From the sequence record PP359696.1: a DNA stretch of 64,000 nucleotides; one strand, written 5' to 3'. Of the stretch, positions 1,700-20,482 are shown in pieces (positions within the stretch are counted from its first letter, which is position 1; each line of letters starts with the position of its first letter). Source of the DNA: Escherichia phage Ge15. The notes below the pieces were generated by a model. That model was given only the letters and a program-made list of their open reading frames with translations. It made no database searches and was not told the origin of the DNA. Made by a program: the position numbers and the translations under genes.

Positions 1700-1752
1700 G
1701 TTTACAAGTCCCTCGTGTTGTGTTACAGTAGTCTTACTGACATAACATGAGG
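1700..1752 (+). promoter_or_regulatory. Early-promoter-like GTTTAC element followed by a ~16-bp imperfect hairpin that sequesters the alc Shine-Dalgarno (GAGG)
   Basis: GTTTAC at 1700-1705; arms 1711-1728 and 1737-1752 pair with G-U wobbles; GAGG at 1749-1752 inside the 3' arm; near-identical copy at 20103-20155. Confidence 0.55.
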
Positions 1753-5024: not shown

Positions 5025-5063
5025 GTTTACTTTACGGTAGAGTTGTGATATTATAGCTCTACC
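5025..5063 (+). promoter_or_regulatory. Putative early promoter (GTTTAC -35, TATTAT -10) with inverted repeat enclosing the -10
   Basis: GTTTAC 5025-5030; tattat 5049-5054; inverted repeat ggtagag 5036-5042 / ctctacc 5057-5063; followed by SD GAGGA and ATG 5085. Confidence 0.5.
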
Positions 5064-5084
5064 AAAACAAATGAGGAAATTGAA

Positions 5085-5612
5085 ATGAGCGAATGGTTTG
5101 AAGAAGATAAGGTTTATCGCTTTAAAGCTGGATATAAAGATATTTTTAATGAAACTTGTGGGGCTAATAAACGAATTGCTCAGTTTATTGGGGAAAATTC
5201 ATTTAAAGTAAAAATAGATCCTGCGAAAAATGTTATTAGCATTAAACGCGAAATTGACGATTGCTGGTATAAAGCTGTTGATGTAATGGGCGAATCTTAT
5301 AAAGAAAGCCCGCTATTTTCAATTACTTATATGTCAGAATATTATTTTTTCGAAGAAGTTCAAAAAGATGACTCTATCAGTAAATTTGAAATTAAAACTG
5401 ATAAAGAAATTAAGTGGAAAGTAGTAGGTATTACTGGTTGTATGTTTTATATCTATGCTCAAACTGATACGAAGGAAGAAGCTAAAAAGAAAGCTCTAGA
5501 ATATCTTGAAGAGTATGAAGAAGGCCCGGTAATGATTACCCAAGATGCCGAATTAGTTTCTGTCAAATTAGTTAAAAACGTTGAAAGTAAGGAGCTGGGA
5601 TCAACATGCTAA
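5085..5612 (+). CDS. Hypothetical protein
   Basis: 175-aa ORF with good SD (gagga) 8 nt upstream. Confidence 0.6.
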   Translation: MSEWFEEDKVYRFKAGYKDIFNETCGANKRIAQFIGENSFKVKIDPAKNVISIKREIDDCWYKAVDVMGESYKESPLFSITYMSEYYFFEEVQKDDSISKFEIKTDKEIKWKVVGITGCMFYIYAQTDTKEEAKKKALEYLEEYEEGPVMITQDAELVSVKLVKNVESKELGSTC

Positions 5613-8465: not shown

Positions 8466-8642
8466 ATGGCAAAACAAGCTAAAGCAAAGAAAGCAGTTGA
8501 AAAGAAAGTTGGTGATTCTAAACGCGCTGGCTACAAGCGTGGGTCGAACTCTCGTATCAATCAAACTGTTGAGAAGATCATGCGCCGAGCACGTGCGGTT
8601 CTTCGAGATGATGCTTCTCGTTTTGGTAAGCAGAAAGCATAA
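8466..8642 (+). CDS. Hypothetical small, highly basic protein (30.9 position)
   Basis: 58 aa from ATG 8466 (MAKQAKAKKAVEKKVGDSKRAGYKRG...); followed by a strong terminator. Confidence 0.6.
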   Translation: MAKQAKAKKAVEKKVGDSKRAGYKRGSNSRINQTVEKIMRRARAVLRDDASRFGKQKA

Positions 8643-8647
8643 GTTGA

Positions 8648-8671
8648 GGACTCCTTCGGGAGTCCTTTTTT
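8648..8671 (+). terminator. Rho-independent terminator
   Basis: ggactcc-ttcg-ggagtcc hairpin followed by TTTTTT. Confidence 0.8.
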
Positions 8672-8752
8672 ATTTTCCAAAGATTGCACAAAGTTGTTTA
8701 CAGTATAGTTCCTTTGTGATAGTATTATTTTACACAAACAAAGGAGAATAAA

Positions 8753-9121
8753 ATGAAAATCAATCTTAACTCATACATCAAAGGTAAAGATCACGACGGC
8801 TATAAAGCTATCGAAACTAAAGAACTTCAGTGGCATTTATATAAAGAACAATTTGAATTCGTAGGTTGCATGACTCCTGAAGGTCCTTCTGATGATTTCT
8901 CTTGGAAAATAATGTTAACTAACTTTTTTACTGGAGATACATACGAATTAAAAACTTTGATTCTTGGTAAAATTCGCTGTGAGACTTATGAAGATAAAGA
9001 AACTGGTTATTCTGAAGATGTTACATGGTATCAAAATGGTCGTATTACCGCTGATCTTTTGATTGAAAAAATGAAAGCCAAAGGTGAATTAAATTTAGAT
9101 AATTGGATTAAAGTTGCATAA
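8753..9121 (+). CDS. Hypothetical protein (30.8 position)
   Basis: 122-aa ORF with SD aaggag. Confidence 0.6.
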   Translation: MKINLNSYIKGKDHDGYKAIETKELQWHLYKEQFEFVGCMTPEGPSDDFSWKIMLTNFFTGDTYELKTLILGKIRCETYEDKETGYSEDVTWYQNGRITADLLIEKMKAKGELNLDNWIKVA

Positions 9122-9125
9122 AATA

Positions 9126-9165
9126 GTTTACTTTGGTACAGGATATGATATTATATACCTGTACC
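9126..9165 (+). promoter_or_regulatory. Putative early promoter (GTTTAC -35, TATTAT -10) with inverted repeat enclosing the -10
   Basis: GTTTAC 9126-9131; tattat 9149-9154; inverted repeat ggtacagg 9135-9142 / cctgtacc 9158-9165; same architecture as 5025-5063 with a different stem sequence. Confidence 0.5.
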
Positions 9166-9191
9166 GCAATTAAACATCTCGGAGAATAAAA

Positions 9192-9557
9192 ATGAACTAC
9201 ATCAACTTTGAACGTAAATATGTTTCTAACGGTATTGCAGGTTCTATTGATACTATCTGCCTTTGGAAACATCAAAATGGATCAGTATGCGAAATTGAAC
9301 AGTATATGACTCCTAACTACGTTTATATGCGATTTGAAAATGGCATCACGGTTTCAATCACGAAAGAAGGTTCTTCTTTTAAAATCGCTTTAGATGATGA
9401 TTTTCGTCAACGCGATTTAGGGACTCATCCTTGCTGGAATGGCGTCAATCGTAAGCTTCTGGTTAAAACTTGGATTCGTCATATTTTGAGTAACAGAGCT
9501 AAACCTGAGCATCTTGAAGCAATCTTTGATGTAGTTCTTAACGAATTTGATATTTAA
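9192..9557 (+). CDS. Hypothetical protein (30.7 position)
   Basis: 121-aa ORF with SD ggaga. Confidence 0.6.
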   Translation: MNYINFERKYVSNGIAGSIDTICLWKHQNGSVCEIEQYMTPNYVYMRFENGITVSITKEGSSFKIALDDDFRQRDLGTHPCWNGVNRKLLVKTWIRHILSNRAKPEHLEAIFDVVLNEFDI

Positions 9558-15917: not shown

Positions 15918-15925
15918 TATAAATA
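15918..15925 (+). promoter_or_regulatory. Late promoter TATAAATA upstream of alt
   Basis: Exact TATAAATA about 20 nt upstream of the alt ATG, then SD gagagg. Confidence 0.65.
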
Positions 15926-15945: not shown

Positions 15946-18042
15946 ATGATGGAACTCATTACAGAATTATTTGACGAAGATACTACTCTTCCGATTACAA
16001 ACTTAAATCCAAAGAAGAAAATACCACAAATTTTTTCAGTTCATGTTGATGACGCAATTGAACAACCAGGCTTTCGTTTATGTACCTATACATCTGGAGG
16101 TGATACTAATCGCGATTTAAAGATGGGCGATAAAATGATGCATATTGTTCCTTTTACATTAACTGCTAAAGGTTCAATTGCTAAATTAAAAGGTCTCGGT
16201 CCAAGCCCAATTAATTACATCAATTCAGTTTTTACTGTTGCGATGCAGACGATGCGTCAGTATAAAATTGATGCCTGTATGCTTCGTATTCTTAAGTCTA
16301 AAACTGCTGGTCAAGCTCGTCAAATTCAACTTATTGCTGATAGACTTATCCGCAGTCGTTCAGGTGGCAGATACGTCCTTCTTAAGGAACTCTGGGATTA
16401 CGATAAAAAGTATGCATATATTCTTATACATCGCAAAAATGTATCACTAGAAGACATTCCAGGAGTTCCAGAAATTAGCACCGAGCTCTTTACTAAAGTT
16501 GAATCAAAGGTTGGTGATGTTTATATCAATAAAGATACTGGAGCTCAAGTAACTAAAAATGAGGCAATTGCTGCATCTATTGCGCAAGAAAACGATAAAC
16601 GTTCTGACCAAGCTGTAATCGTTAAAGTTAAAATTTCCCGTAGAGCAATTGCACAAAGTCAATCATTAGAATCTTCTAGATTTGAAAGTGAATTATTCCA
16701 AAAGTATGAATCTACCGCAGCTAATTTCAATAAACCTGCTACGGCTCCTTTAATTCCCGAAGCAGAAGAAATGAAGCTTGGAATTAATTCATTAGCTTCT
16801 AAAACTAAAGCAGCAAAAATTATTGCTGAAGGAACTGCAGATGAACTTCATTATGACTATAAATTCTTTTCAAAAAGTGAGGTTAATGAAGTTTCTGAAA
16901 AAATTAAAGATGTAATTCTTAATGCGATTAAAAATGAACCAACTACTTCAATAAAATGTTTAGAGAAATACGCAGCAGCTGTTAATCAATTATTTGAAGA
17001 ATATAAAGATAATTGGCTTGATAAACATAATAAAACCCGTAAAGGACAGCCAGATGAAGTCTGGGAAGAAATGACTAAAAATTCCTGGAACGCAGCAAAA
17101 ACTAAATTCCTCAAAAGAATGATTTACAGCTTTTCTGGAATTGGTGCAGGTCCAATGATTGATATTACTATTGCCCGTGATGGTTCTAAATATACTCCAT
17201 CACAAAAGCGTGGCATTAGAGAGTATTGCGGTTCAGGATATACTGACATCAATAATCTTCTTTTAGGACGCTACAATCCAGAACGATATGATGTAATGAG
17301 TGAAAAAGAAATTGAATCTGCTATAAATAACTTAGATTCAGCTTTTGAAAATGGTGACCGTATACCAGAAGGCATTACAGTTTATCGTGCTCAAAGCATG
17401 ACTGCTCCTATATACGAAGCACTAGTTAAAAATAAAGTGTTCTATTTCAGAAATTTTGTATCTACTTCTTTAACTCCTATCATTTTTGGACGTTTTGGAA
17501 TTACGCATACTGGTATTGGTCTTTTAGAACCAGAAGCTCGTAATGAATTGACAGTTGATAAAAATGAAGAAGGAATAACTATTAATCCAAGCGAAATAAG
17601 AGCGTATAAAGAAAATCCTGAATACGTTAAAGTTCAAATAGGATGGGCAATTGATGGAGCTCATAAAGTTAATGTTGTATATCCAGGAAGTCTCGGAATA
17701 GCAACAGAAGCTGAAGTTATTCTACCACGAGGATTGATGGTCAAAGTTAATAAAATAACTGATGCTTCTAATAATGACGGAACAACATCTAATAATACAA
17801 AACTCATTCAAGCTGAAGTTATGACTACGGAAGAACTCACCGAATCAGTCATTTATGACGGTGACCGTCTAATGGAAACTGGTGAAGTAGTTGCAATGAC
17901 AGGTGATATTGAAATAGAAGACAGAGTTGACTTTGCATCATTTGTTTCATCAAATGTTAAACAAAAAGTAGAATCATCTCTTGGAATTATTGCGTCTTGC
18001 ATAGATATTACAAACATGCCTTACAAGTTCGTTCAAGGATAA
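15946..18042 (+). CDS. alt: Alt-type mono-ADP-ribosyltransferase, packaged in the head (paralog 1)
   Basis: 698 aa; N-terminal MELITE|LF capsid-targeting/gp21-cleavage-type sequence; C-terminal R (VYRAQ), STS (FVSTSL) and ExE (EAEVILPRG) motifs. Confidence 0.85.
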   Translation: MMELITELFDEDTTLPITNLNPKKKIPQIFSVHVDDAIEQPGFRLCTYTSGGDTNRDLKMGDKMMHIVPFTLTAKGSIAKLKGLGPSPINYINSVFTVAMQTMRQYKIDACMLRILKSKTAGQARQIQLIADRLIRSRSGGRYVLLKELWDYDKKYAYILIHRKNVSLEDIPGVPEISTELFTKVESKVGDVYINKDTGAQVTKNEAIAASIAQENDKRSDQAVIVKVKISRRAIAQSQSLESSRFESELFQKYESTAANFNKPATAPLIPEAEEMKLGINSLASKTKAAKIIAEGTADELHYDYKFFSKSEVNEVSEKIKDVILNAIKNEPTTSIKCLEKYAAAVNQLFEEYKDNWLDKHNKTRKGQPDEVWEEMTKNSWNAAKTKFLKRMIYSFSGIGAGPMIDITIARDGSKYTPSQKRGIREYCGSGYTDINNLLLGRYNPERYDVMSEKEIESAINNLDSAFENGDRIPEGITVYRAQSMTAPIYEALVKNKVFYFRNFVSTSLTPIIFGRFGITHTGIGLLEPEARNELTVDKNEEGITINPSEIRAYKENPEYVKVQIGWAIDGAHKVNVVYPGSLGIATEAEVILPRGLMVKVNKITDASNNDGTTSNNTKLIQAEVMTTEELTESVIYDGDRLMETGEVVAMTGDIEIEDRVDFASFVSSNVKQKVESSLGIIASCIDITNMPYKFVQG

Positions 18043-18045
18043 ATC

Positions 18046-20103
18046 ATGGAACTTATTACAGAATTATTTGACGGCGCTTCGGCGCCGGTTGTTAACTTAA
18101 ATCCTAAGCATAAAATACCTCAAATTTTTGCTATTCAAACCGGTGAAGAAAGCGTGCTTCCTGGATTTAGATTTTGTACATACACCTCTGGCGGTGATAC
18201 AAATAAAAACGTTAAGCCAGGCGATAAAATGATGCATATCGTAATGATAGGTGTTAATGAGAAACTATCATTAGTTAAACTTAAAAACTTGGGTGGAAAT
18301 CCAATTGGTGTCATTAATGCGGTTTTTGATACTGCTCTTCAAACAATGAAACAGTATAAAATTGACGCATGCCTATTCCGCGTACTAAAAAGTAAAACAA
18401 ATGGTGCAGCTCGTCAAATGCAAGTTATTGCTGACCGTTTAGTACGTACTAAAGGAGCAGGTCGATATGTTCTTTTAAAGGAAATCTGGGATTACGATAA
18501 AAAGTATGCATATATTATGGTTTACCGTAAAAATGCCAATTTAGAAGACATTCCAGGTGTACCTCCTATTTCAACTGAGTTATTCACAAAAGTTGAATCA
18601 AAGGTTGGTGATGTTTATGTAGATGTTAAAACAGGTAATGCTGTTCCTAAAGCTGTTGCTGTTGCTGCTTCTATTGCTTTAGAAAATGATAAGCGCACGG
18701 ATCAAGCTGTTATTCAGAAAACTAAAATTAGTCGTCGATTGGCAGCACAAGCTCAATATTCTACTGTCGATGCTTCGCTTCAGGGTGATAGCTTCGCTGC
18801 CAAGAAATATCAAGAGTTTGAATCTAAAGTTCCGGTATATAAAGCAGAAGGACCAATGAACTCTGGTGTTATTCAGATTGGTTCAAACTTCAGCAAAGGA
18901 GCTATCGGTGGTATGAGAAGTGCTTCTCGTTTTAAATCTAACGATTATGAACTAGAAAGCTTCCGAAATCATATTGCATTGGCTCATGCACGTTTACGTG
19001 ATCCGTCTATCAGACTGCAGAGCGATATAACACATCAAGGTTCTCAAGAATATTTAAAGAATAAAGAATTTTTTGATTATAAAACCGATAAAATTTTGAG
19101 CGATCTCGCTGACATTAATATTTCTAATAGCTTTGATGTTATTAAGAAAATTATCAATGATTTAGTTAAAGGTTCTAAAGCCACGCCAGACGAAAAGGTA
19201 GCTATTATTCAATTTGTTATGAATGGCATTTATAAATTGATTAATGAATCTGCTGCTCAGGCATATGAATACGCAAGCACCGAAGTAACTCCAAAAGGAT
19301 TAACTCAGGCTGAGTCTGATGTAATAGAAGATTATTGTGCAGATTCATATGTTGAAATGAACTCGTTCCTCTTGGGTAAACCAGATTCTACCCGTGAAGA
19401 ATACATGGAACGAGCTATTAAACACATCGAGACAATGGATTCTGCATTCGCTAAAGGTTCAGTTCTTCCTCCAGGAACTACGCTTTATCGTGGACAAGAA
19501 GTTACTTTTAAAACTTTACGTCATAATATTGAAAATAAAATGTTCTATTTCAAGAACTTCGTATCCACATCGCTTAAACCAAATATCTTCGGTGAGCATG
19601 GTAAAAACTATATGGCTCTAGATGATTCCGGCGCAGTATTTTCTGGCGAAGGAGAAGGTTCAGTTGATGCTGAAGATTTAATGCATATGGGTAGTCACTC
19701 TGCTTATGCGAATGAAGACGCTGAAACTAGCGTAGGTATGGTAATTAAAGGGGCTGAGCGAATCAAAGTTATCGTTCCAGGTCATTTATCAGGATTTCCA
19801 TCAGAAGCTGAAGTTATTTTACCGCGTGGAATTTTGCTGAAGATTAATAAAGTGAGCACGTACATGATGAAAGAAACTGCTTATAATAAGTATCTAATCG
19901 AAGGCACAATCGTTCCTCCTTCTGAACAATTAGAAGAATCGGTATATGATGGCGATCATCTAATGGAAACTGGTGAAGTTCGTCCAATGGCTGGGTTTAA
20001 TCAATTCCTTGTAGAAGAATCAAAAGAAGAGGAAAACGAAGTTTCTCAAATCTTGGCTTCTTTGGTTAACATCAACGGAATGTCTAAAAAGTTCAAGATG
20101 TAG
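18046..20103 (+). CDS. Alt-like mono-ADP-ribosyltransferase (paralog 2)
   Basis: 685 aa; same N-terminal MELITELFD and conserved first ~230 aa; divergent middle; retains R (LYRGQ), STS, ExE (EAEVILPRG). Confidence 0.8.
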   Translation: MELITELFDGASAPVVNLNPKHKIPQIFAIQTGEESVLPGFRFCTYTSGGDTNKNVKPGDKMMHIVMIGVNEKLSLVKLKNLGGNPIGVINAVFDTALQTMKQYKIDACLFRVLKSKTNGAARQMQVIADRLVRTKGAGRYVLLKEIWDYDKKYAYIMVYRKNANLEDIPGVPPISTELFTKVESKVGDVYVDVKTGNAVPKAVAVAASIALENDKRTDQAVIQKTKISRRLAAQAQYSTVDASLQGDSFAAKKYQEFESKVPVYKAEGPMNSGVIQIGSNFSKGAIGGMRSASRFKSNDYELESFRNHIALAHARLRDPSIRLQSDITHQGSQEYLKNKEFFDYKTDKILSDLADINISNSFDVIKKIINDLVKGSKATPDEKVAIIQFVMNGIYKLINESAAQAYEYASTEVTPKGLTQAESDVIEDYCADSYVEMNSFLLGKPDSTREEYMERAIKHIETMDSAFAKGSVLPPGTTLYRGQEVTFKTLRHNIENKMFYFKNFVSTSLKPNIFGEHGKNYMALDDSGAVFSGEGEGSVDAEDLMHMGSHSAYANEDAETSVGMVIKGAERIKVIVPGHLSGFPSEAEVILPRGILLKINKVSTYMMKETAYNKYLIEGTIVPPSEQLEESVYDGDHLMETGEVRPMAGFNQFLVEESKEEENEVSQILASLVNINGMSKKFKM

Positions 20104-20155
20104 TTTACAAGTCCCTCGTGTTGTGTTACAATAGTTTTACTGACATAACATGAGG
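20103..20155 (+). promoter_or_regulatory. Second copy of the GTTTAC + SD-sequestering hairpin cassette
   Basis: Near-identical to 1700-1752 (GTTTACAAGTCCCTCGTGTTGTGTTACA...CTGACATAACATGAGG); precedes ORF 20164. Confidence 0.55.
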
Positions 20156-20163
20156 AACACAAA

Positions 20164-20454
20164 ATGAAATCTTCTTTACGCTTTTTAGGTCAAGAACTTG
20201 TAGTTGAAGGCGTTATTCCTGCTGATAACGCTTTTAATGAAGCAGTTTATGATGAATTTATCAAAATTTTTGGAACAGATAAAAAGTTCGGAATTTTTCC
20301 TTCTGAAAATTTTTTAAAGCCAGAACAGACTGAAAGCATTTTCCAGGGTGTAGTAACAGGTAAATTTGAGTCAGAAGCTCCGGTAAAAATTGAAGTTTAT
20401 ATTGAAGACAGTTTAGTTGCTTCAGTTGCTGCTTTTATTTCATTCCGTAAATAA
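20164..20454 (+). CDS. Hypothetical acidic protein
   Basis: 96-aa ORF between the alt paralog and gene 54. Confidence 0.55.
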   Translation: MKSSLRFLGQELVVEGVIPADNAFNEAVYDEFIKIFGTDKKFGIFPSENFLKPEQTESIFQGVVTGKFESEAPVKIEVYIEDSLVASVAAFISFRK

Positions 20455-20460
20455 AAATAT

Positions 20461-20478
20461 GGGGACCGTTCGGTCCCC
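20461..20478. terminator. Hairpin at convergent gene boundary (plus ORF 20164 / minus gene 54)
   Basis: ggggacc-gttc-ggtcccc perfect stem; no long U-tract. Confidence 0.5.
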
Positions 20479-20482
20479 ATTG

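Follow-up and report, generated by a model that had tools for sequence, protein, structure and literature searches.

Two intergenic regions of Escherichia phage Ge15, a Tequatrovirus and close relative of T4, carry near-identical copies of a 54-bp element that combines an early promoter with a hairpin reaching into the Shine–Dalgarno (SD) sequence of the next gene. We analysed a 64,000-nucleotide stretch of this phage (PP359696.1; hereafter the window), in which copy A precedes alc and copy B precedes alt.-3. The best explanation, to which we assign a probability of roughly two in three, is that an early promoter lies embedded in a hairpin that hides the ribosome-binding site (RBS), and that this unit was copied between the two loci. 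Evidence for this reading comes from the sequence and predicted folding of the two copies, from covariation of the pairing segments across genera and from the distribution of similar elements among other early promoters.

According to the proposed mechanism, RNA from the cassette's own early promoter would begin in the hairpin loop and carry only the 3′ arm, leaving the SD free, so that alc and alt.-3 could be translated right after infection. Read-through RNA would carry both arms, fold into a stem of 15–21 bp and leave the downstream gene translationally silent. Such RNA could arrive as middle or late transcripts via rnlA at copy A, and as late transcripts from the alt promoter via alt and alt.-2 at copy B. 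Synthesis of Alc and Alt.-3 would thereby be tied to the short period of early-promoter firing and insulated from upstream transcription. The whole cassette would have been copied between the loci in the Tequatrovirus ancestor, probably from alc to alt.-3, by short-patch homologous recombination between early-promoter cassettes, and the overlapping constraints of promoter, both arms and SD would then have kept the copies alike.

A 54-bp element repeated at two loci

The original prediction held that a sequence of about 53 bp recurs at a distant locus with few substitutions, and this was borne out. The 53-mer matches exactly at 1700–1752 and with two mismatches at 20103–20155 (51/53 identical), with no matches in 100 dinucleotide-preserving shuffles. 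When the flanks were included in the alignment, identity began sharply at the G of GTTTAC and stopped at GAGGA, with unrelated sequence on either side. Because these edges are abrupt, we define the shared unit as 54 bp, at 1700–1753 (copy A) and 20103–20156 (copy B), both on the + strand. Copy A occupies the 61–64-nt gap between rnlA (gene 63) and alc, with the rnlA stop codon (1694–1696) 4 nt ahead of it. Copy B lies between alt.-2 and alt.-3, where the alt.-2 stop codon TAG (20101–20103) overlaps its first G; copy B and alt.-3 adjoin the convergent gene 54. In both copies the element includes the SD, and the ATG follows 5–8 nt further 3′.

Downstream of copy A, alc (1761–2264, +; Pfam PF17527, E = 4e-91) encodes the inhibitor of host transcription; it has an alternative ATG at 1758 and is annotated in ime09 and T4. 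Downstream of copy B, alt.-3 (20164–20454, +; ATG at 20164) encodes a DUF5498 protein (Pfam PF17602, E = 1e-63). We considered and rejected paralogy of Alc and Alt.-3: BLASTP returned no alignment and the proteins belong to separate Pfam families. Because they are unrelated, only the regulatory unit is common to both loci.

A BLASTN search with the element, suggested by the original prediction, found both copies across the genus: its 997 matches fall in 499 phage records, every one of them a Tequatrovirus, with two per genome. Both copies are present in almost all of the ~500 Tequatrovirus genomes searched, including T4, whose own copies are 1 base apart. The downstream genes are conserved across genera, alc being present in 1136 records and alt.-3 in 836. 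The window is 99% identical to phages SholemSchwarzbard and PinkRuby, and neither element had an Rfam match at E ≤ 1 (window 1–21500). Next to copy B, only the upstream alt.-2 varies, being full length in the window and truncated in T4. The window's alt.-2 (18046–20103) is a full-length, 685-aa Alt-like ADP-ribosyltransferase and a paralog of Alt. T4 has only short alt.-1 and alt.-2 remnants, whose last codons and cassette-overlapping stop match those of the window.

An early promoter inside each copy

Promoter scans placed an early promoter in each copy. The copy A promoter (1700–1729, +) has a -35 element GTTTAC at 1700–1705 (TTTACA at 1701–1706 in the sigma-70 register), TGn at 1721–1723 and a -10 element TACAGT at 1724–1729. 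The copy B promoter (20103–20132, +; 10/12 matches) has GTTTAC at 20103–20108, TGn and TACAAT at 20127–20132. Both combine TTTACA, a 17-nt spacer and TG before the -10, the form of extended -10 early promoters, and both fit the consensus TTTACW-N17-TAYWAT given for PST and T4 (PMC4122927). Start sites are predicted from spacing, ~7 nt after the -10, near 1736 in copy A and near 20139 in copy B. A literature search turned up no genome-wide map of T4 5′ ends, and a search with the element sequence returned one unrelated paper only.

Predicted sequestration of the SD

The 5′ arm of copy A (1707–1725, +; minimum free energy (MFE) structure) consists of an anti-SD CCUC plus an extension. It sits in the promoter spacer, upstream of the predicted start, and pairs with a 3′ arm (1738–1755, +; SD pairing probabilities) that contains the alc SD, GAGG at 1749–1752. 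In copy B, the spacer segment CCUCGUGUUGUGUUA (20114–20128, +) is complementary to UGACAUAACAUGAGG (20141–20155, +; fold and opening cost), which bears the alt.-3 SD, GAGG at 20152–20155. The copy B stem has 15 bp, three of them G.U, in both the MFE and the centroid structure, and the copy A helix is longer by AAGUCC/GGACUU. The stems have 15–21 bp and extend from the spacer over the -10 as far as the SD. Folding of both copies upheld the predicted hairpin with GAGG in its 3′ arm: read-through RNA folds at -31.1 kcal/mol for copy A (z = -5.8) and -20.8 kcal/mol for copy B (z = -3.05), with all four GAGG bases paired in each. RNAs starting after the -10 are unstructured at both copies (z ~0).

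The claim that the SD would be exposed on internally initiated RNA and hidden on read-through RNA likewise agrees with modelled opening costs (0.2–1.6 versus 7.9–11.4 kcal/mol). By partition function, opening the SD of copy A costs 7.9 kcal/mol in read-through RNA and 0.2–0.5 kcal/mol in own-promoter RNA; for copy B the corresponding costs are 11.35 and 1.4–1.6 kcal/mol. Copy A SD bases have an unpaired probability of at most 0.008 in read-through RNA versus 0.64–0.92 in own-promoter RNA. The predicted +1 of both copies falls in the hairpin loop and the 5′ arm lies wholly upstream of it, so RNA from the embedded promoter would have a free SD and read-through RNA a hidden one. In Tequatrovirus, two or three G.U pairs give the + strand a stability advantage of 8–9 kcal/mol over the - strand, in which they become A.C mismatches and weaken the fold.

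A stem overlapping an early promoter could instead act mainly on transcription. PeSLs (promoter-early stem-loops) of T4-type phages likewise consist of an early promoter, stem-loop, SD and ATG after a stop codon, and one RB49 stem-loop lowered expression of a downstream reporter (PMC2839356). They have also been catalogued in the Tequatrovirus PST (PMC4122927). Two further promoters in the window, at 5025–5087 and 9126–9194, have stem-loops that straddle the -10 and exclude the SD (z = -2.8 and -3.9), the classic PeSL layout. On this account the alc and alt.-3 stems would attenuate or terminate upstream transcription, with the SD in the stem incidental. A terminator scan, however, gave no hit at either copy or in the sequence that separates it from the preceding gene, and the stem is not followed by a U-tract (mean of 2 T in the 9 nt past the stem, 22 loci). 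On sequence grounds, the stem is not an intrinsic terminator. In addition, one lineage after another has the SD itself as the 3′ arm and a partner that co-varies with it, which a terminator would not need. We consider this PeSL-type account unlikely.

Spacer–SD pairing is maintained across genera

The arrangement of rnlA, a gap of ~60 nt and alc is kept in other genera. The alc SD pairs with the bases that directly follow the -35 in Gelderland-, Karam-, Jiaoda-, Dhaka- and Winklervirus, and with the spacer in further lineages as well, by arm sequences that differ between genera (for example, ATCTCCGTTT/AAACGGAGAT and ATCCTCATCAG/CTGATGAGGAT). We assembled 39 distinct alc upstream regions from IMG/VR genomes. 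At least 6 of 10 SD-window bases are paired to bases upstream of the predicted start in ~28 of the 39, and at least ten different arm pairs are in use. In an alignment-free test, each spacer was duplexed with its own SD region and with the SD regions of other loci. Cognate duplexes summed to -498 kcal/mol versus -282 ± 18.5 for permuted partners, and the cognate sum was reached in 0 of 10,000 permutations (and, in a smaller set, in 0 of 265 derangements); because the loci are phylogenetically related, these significances are inflated to some degree and should not be read as exact probabilities, although the size of the effect is large despite this kinship. Judging from these comparisons, the spacer–SD pairing at alc is older than the genus Tequatrovirus and is maintained by covariation. 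Stem variants within Tequatrovirus also preserve pairing, with G.U becoming A-U in the copy A 5′ arm (L012), C-G becoming U.G, and a U-A pair in the copy A 3′ arm becoming U.G (L036).

Other searches were less productive. A MAFFT alignment of alc leaders put the arms out of register, so that RNAalifold found no structure in it. Anchor scans of IMG/VR with patterns from the end of rnlA and the start of alt.-3 yielded few genuine loci along with several matches due to chance, and a metagenome scan with a 15-mer, an anchor too short for that collection, returned 120 loci of which 1 was a real copy.

The same comparisons bear on whether the inverted repeat acts as DNA, as an operator for a dimeric regulator (for example, in early-promoter shut-off) or as a cruciform or recombination signal. 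It spans the -10 and start site, stems outside Tequatrovirus are strand-symmetric, the mechanism of early-promoter shut-off is still unexplained (PMC2988021), and Arbiol et al. speculated on a protein that binds PeSL stems (PMC2839356). Yet what is kept is complementarity and not sequence, with at least ten arm variants, the opposite of what a sequence-specific operator would show. One arm is always the SD, and the G.U pairs and pairing-preserving transitions in Tequatrovirus favour an RNA of the + strand. A DNA-level role is, in our judgement, very improbable.

Possible transcription entering the two loci

At copy B, a canonical late promoter, TATAAATA (15918–15925, +), was identified by motif search just upstream of alt (ATG at 15946), a gene experimentally classed as late in T4 (PMC9697503). 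Because this promoter lies at 15918 and no terminator intervenes, late RNA should cross alt and alt.-2 into copy B. In T4 omics data, alc and alt.-3 have early RNA and early protein, and rnlA has early RNA and late protein (PMC9697503 supplements). At copy A, a putative middle promoter lies at 520–545, just before the rnlA ATG (572), with a MotA-box-like TGCTTCC and TACTAT 13 nt later.

Several points weigh against an early promoter embedded in an RBS-hiding hairpin. We infer both the existence and the amount of read-through RNA into alc. Motif searching found no late promoter directly upstream of rnlA, the MotA-box-like site at 520–545 is a prediction absent from the published list of middle promoters mapped in T4, and PI-TevIII and PnrdB+ are the closest mapped ones upstream of rnlA. 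Initiation near 1736 and 20139 is likewise a prediction from promoter spacing, and no reason is evident why late synthesis of Alc or Alt.-3 would be harmful. The kinship of loci that inflates the permutation test belongs here too. A strand test outside Tequatrovirus, with 363 Watson–Crick and 12 G.U pairs, gave a Wilcoxon p of 0.72; because those stems are nearly all Watson–Crick, it cannot separate RNA pairing from a DNA palindrome there. Finally, pairing at alc was not found in Mosigvirus, L169/L187, L172 or L188, and because some lineages manage without it, the pairing is not essential. Mosigvirus and a few other lineages have at alc only a small intra-spacer hairpin, or a stem-loop across the -10. 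Even so, each rival explanation is much less likely than an early promoter within an RBS-hiding hairpin.

Predicted SD sequestration at other early promoters

Three of the five promoters with an exact GTTTAC in the window pair their spacer with the SD, namely those of alc and alt.-3 and one at 8696–8755; the remaining two are those at 5025 and 9126 with a stem-loop across the -10. This third promoter precedes a 30.8-like gene (PF06019, 8753–9121), and its spacer TTCCTTTGT pairs with the SD ACAAAGGAG. To gauge generality we used SH-1, a complete Tequatrovirus genome with 37 early promoters that precede an SD, ATG and open reading frame (ORF). Six of the 37 have a cognate duplex between spacer and translation-initiation region of -12 kcal/mol or lower, compared with 1.3 expected (permutation P ~0.0006), and ~10 further promoters have only a stem-loop across the -10. 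Early-promoter cassettes in SH-1 have a median identity of 0.63, with several families at 0.85–0.93. The SH-1 promoters at 70464 (L221 ~20664, -) and 18078 (L220 ~18078, -) form a second SD-sequestering pair, 0.93 identical, with arms GACTGTTCCTCTGTGG / CTACGGAGGA[A/G]CAGAA. The genes behind them encode a 175-aa protein (phrog_2274) and a 37-aa membrane peptide (phrog_3098). Because SH-1 has such repeated SD-sequestering cassettes, the alc/alt.-3 pair is one instance of a broader pattern.

The regB promoter of SH-1 (80017; L221 ~30217, -) also belongs to this group, its spacer UUUUCCUCUUGACUG pairing with the gene's own GGAG SD; the ORF was confirmed as a member of the endoribonuclease family. 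GGAG is the RegB cleavage site, and the regB promoter has been shown experimentally to be an early promoter of the typical kind, off after 2–3 min (PMC3014915). By its modelled fold, the regB hairpin would protect the GGAG SD from RegB on read-through RNA. We weighed a role for the stems in RNA processing or stability, as an RNase III-type site, as a 3′-exonuclease barrier for the rnlA or alt message, or as a shield of the SD against RegB. Stems of 15–21 bp are within the range of RNase III substrates, and several genera have the RegB target GGAG as their SD; secondary structure is known to protect against RegB (PMC3014915). The SD of the alc and alt.-3 cassettes in Tequatrovirus is, however, GAGG and not GGAG, and stems of 9–11 bp in some genera (Dhaka- and Jiaodavirus) are too short for RNase III. 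A processing role also leaves unexplained the constant placement of the 5′ arm upstream of the embedded promoter's start. It seems quite improbable as the main function.

Equally improbable, in our estimate, is translational coupling, in which the stem would be melted by ribosomes that terminate at the preceding stop codon and, on read-through RNA, alc or alt.-3 would be translated only in step with rnlA or alt.-2. The upstream stop does lie 2–9 nt before GTTTAC in five of the six SD-sequestering promoters, and it overlaps the promoter at alt.-3 in many genera (TAGTTTAC). But stop spacing is equally tight at early promoters without SD pairing (median offset -8), and we attribute it to genome compaction because those promoters show it too. 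From its footprint size, moreover, a ribosome at the stop codon would reach at most the bottom one or two pairs of the stem.

Taken more broadly, an anti-SD in the promoter spacer could be a general and previously unrecognised design rule of T4-like early promoters, kept by covariation in cassettes that move by short-patch gene conversion; we regard the chances of this wider proposal as evenly balanced. It would apply to about one-sixth of the promoters in a Tequatrovirus, including those of alc, alt.-3, regB and the 30.8-like gene, and would be kept across many genera; whether an immediate-early gene is translated would then depend on the promoter from which its RNA came, contributing to the sharp end of early protein synthesis. 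The moved cassettes would be alc/alt.-3 in Tequatrovirus, the SH-1 70464/18078 pair and an exchange in a Dhakavirus described below. Separately, SH-1 contains a family of five cassettes (72600, 18802, 44770, 14937 and 87903; L220–L223) with identities of 0.80–0.90 and a common leader (…GGTACTATACAACTATCAACTGATACGGATTTGGAGAATAAAATG); these have no spacer–SD pairing.

Duplication and exchange between alc and alt.-3

Across Tequatrovirus genomes, copies A and B match at 49–54 of 54 core bases. Set against the median of 0.63 for early-promoter cassettes in one genome, this sustains the original prediction's view that the pair is more conserved than promoter function requires. Identity between the alc and alt.-3 cassettes of the same genome is 0.84–0.91 in Tequatrovirus and 0.64–0.75 in other genera. 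Other genera, too, have an early promoter ahead of alt.-3, its -35 overlapping the stop codon of alt, and most have only a short intra-spacer hairpin, such as CCACAAGGATGTGG. Because the cassette there is different, we regard the alc-type cassette at alt.-3 as a Tequatrovirus innovation, and since spacer–SD pairing is widespread at alc, copying probably ran from alc to alt.-3. In Kanagawavirus (L028 442–512, L030 442–512), the alt.-3 spacer CGAATGAACG pairs not with the SD but with the start and first codons (AUGCGUUCAUUC), which is the same design with a different target within the translation-initiation region.

The consensus of copy A equals that of copy B in Tequatrovirus, with no fixed differences, and the element varies within the genus at 0–5 of 54 bases, about the genome-wide divergence of the genus. 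These features would suit a fairly recent copy of a promoter region without function, its hairpin an accident. Such an accident is hard to credit, however, given that spacer–SD pairing at alc predates the genus and is maintained by covariation, and given the enrichment among SH-1 early promoters. Ongoing concerted evolution in Tequatrovirus was considered and is not supported, as most differences between copies A and B are confined to one of the two. In L153, for instance, TACAGT in A corresponds to TATAGT in B, and there are 4–5 differing sites in L152/L194 and L154/L195. The C shared by the -10 elements of both window copies may be a coincidence.

Leaders in other genera point to further exchange. 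In one Dhakavirus (L175/L202, on the same contig), alc and alt.-3 share an identical 31-nt stretch immediately ahead of the ATG, and in sister Dhakaviruses they do not; as judged from these leaders, this is a second, independent exchange between the two loci. In the Mosigvirus alc leader (L021 440–503), the 3′ arm ACAACACGAGGAG is perfectly complementary to the Tequatrovirus 5′ arm and the hairpin is lost. Its promoter half resembles alt.-3-type promoters (compare RB69 alt.-3, L026 443–503), which suggests a promoter-half swap. The original prediction had proposed either a portable regulatory module or a recombination hot spot. The Tequatrovirus-specific copy at alt.-3 and the Dhakavirus exchange favour the module; a hot spot was not shown for copies A and B because no rearrangement with a breakpoint at either copy was seen. 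The region between the two copies contains essential genes.

Discussion

The alc/alt.-3 pair is not unique, as other repeated early-promoter cassettes exist, and cassettes of this kind have already been described as PeSLs. According to PMC2839356 and PMC4122927, a PeSL runs from a stop codon through an AT-rich stretch and an early promoter with its stem-loop to an SD and an ATG, and PeSL recombination shuffles genes in RB49/phi1, PST/T4 and nt-1/KVP40. The alc and alt.-3 elements resemble PeSLs as intergenic units that run from an upstream stop through a strong sigma-70-type early promoter with an overlapping stem-loop to the next SD and ATG. Some G-T pairs in the stem, high similarity between repeats in a genome and exchange between copies in related genomes are further likenesses. 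Several PeSL features are accordingly present at alc and alt.-3 (early promoter, stable overlapping stem-loop, bounding stop, SD and ATG, repetition and exchange). The stems differ. In the two papers the PeSL stem is read as a terminator or attenuator and is typically short and G/C-rich (GGGG...CCCC; AGNA...TCNT in PST), whereas the alc/alt.-3 stem has 15–21 bp, no U-tract and an SD as its 3′ arm, with a predicted effect on translation. PeSLs are also tied to hyperplastic regions and the shuffling of ORFans, but alc and alt.-3 are conserved genes and do not lie in a hyperplastic region beside variable ORFans.

In T4, the genes e (lysozyme), soc, 49 and I-TevI have proven hairpins that sequester an RBS and contain an internal promoter (see the review PMC3014915, where alc and alt.-3 are not among the cases). 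There, the SD and/or AUG is paired in upstream-initiated RNA, and RNA from the internal promoter lacks the 5′ arm and is translated. Both features are predicted for alc and alt.-3, and the repression demonstrated experimentally in the four known genes is here predicted from sequence and fold. What differs is the timing. In these known cases a late or middle promoter lies inside the hairpin, and it is early read-through RNA that is silenced. The alc and alt.-3 cassettes instead contain an early promoter, and the RNA silenced would be middle or late read-through, so that the temporal order is reversed. The earlier analogy with lysozyme and soc thus held for hiding of the SD and failed for timing.

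A third precedent is the T-even internal-protein loci, with their repeated early promoter and leader (Repoila et al. 1994, as cited in PMC2839356 and PMC4122927). These, too, are described as near-identical early promoters and leaders beside different genes and as proposed exchange points; they are other loci, and the accessible text of the citing papers does not describe an SD-sequestering stem. Relative to PeSLs and e/soc hairpins, we see the cross-genus covariation and the genome-wide enrichment as the most useful new points.

If our reading is correct, the timing of immediate-early genes in T4 would have an additional, translational level of control. Only RNA from their own early promoters would then yield Alc, Alt.-3, RegB and others, and the middle and late transcripts that cross the genes later would not; this would help to explain the abrupt shut-off of early proteins that reviews call incompletely understood. 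Some PeSL stem-loops would be translational insulators and not terminators. Because promoter, insulator and RBS fit within ~54 bp, the cassette could be copied to a new gene and would work in any context, making it relevant to phage genome evolution and a possible compact part for synthetic biology.

Neighbouring features of the window

Downstream of copy B, a bidirectional terminator-like hairpin at 20459–20480 (both strands), with a perfect 9-bp stem that includes six G-C pairs, separates alt.-3 from the convergent gene 54. A sub-threshold Rfam match to the Rhizobiales small RNA family Atu_C8 at 8598–8681 (31 bits versus a gathering score of 50) is probably due to chance. Further upstream, the nrdB–denA gap contains a terminator-like hairpin, GGGCCGCAAGGCCC followed by ATTTTATT, at 87–108, directly abutting the denA start.

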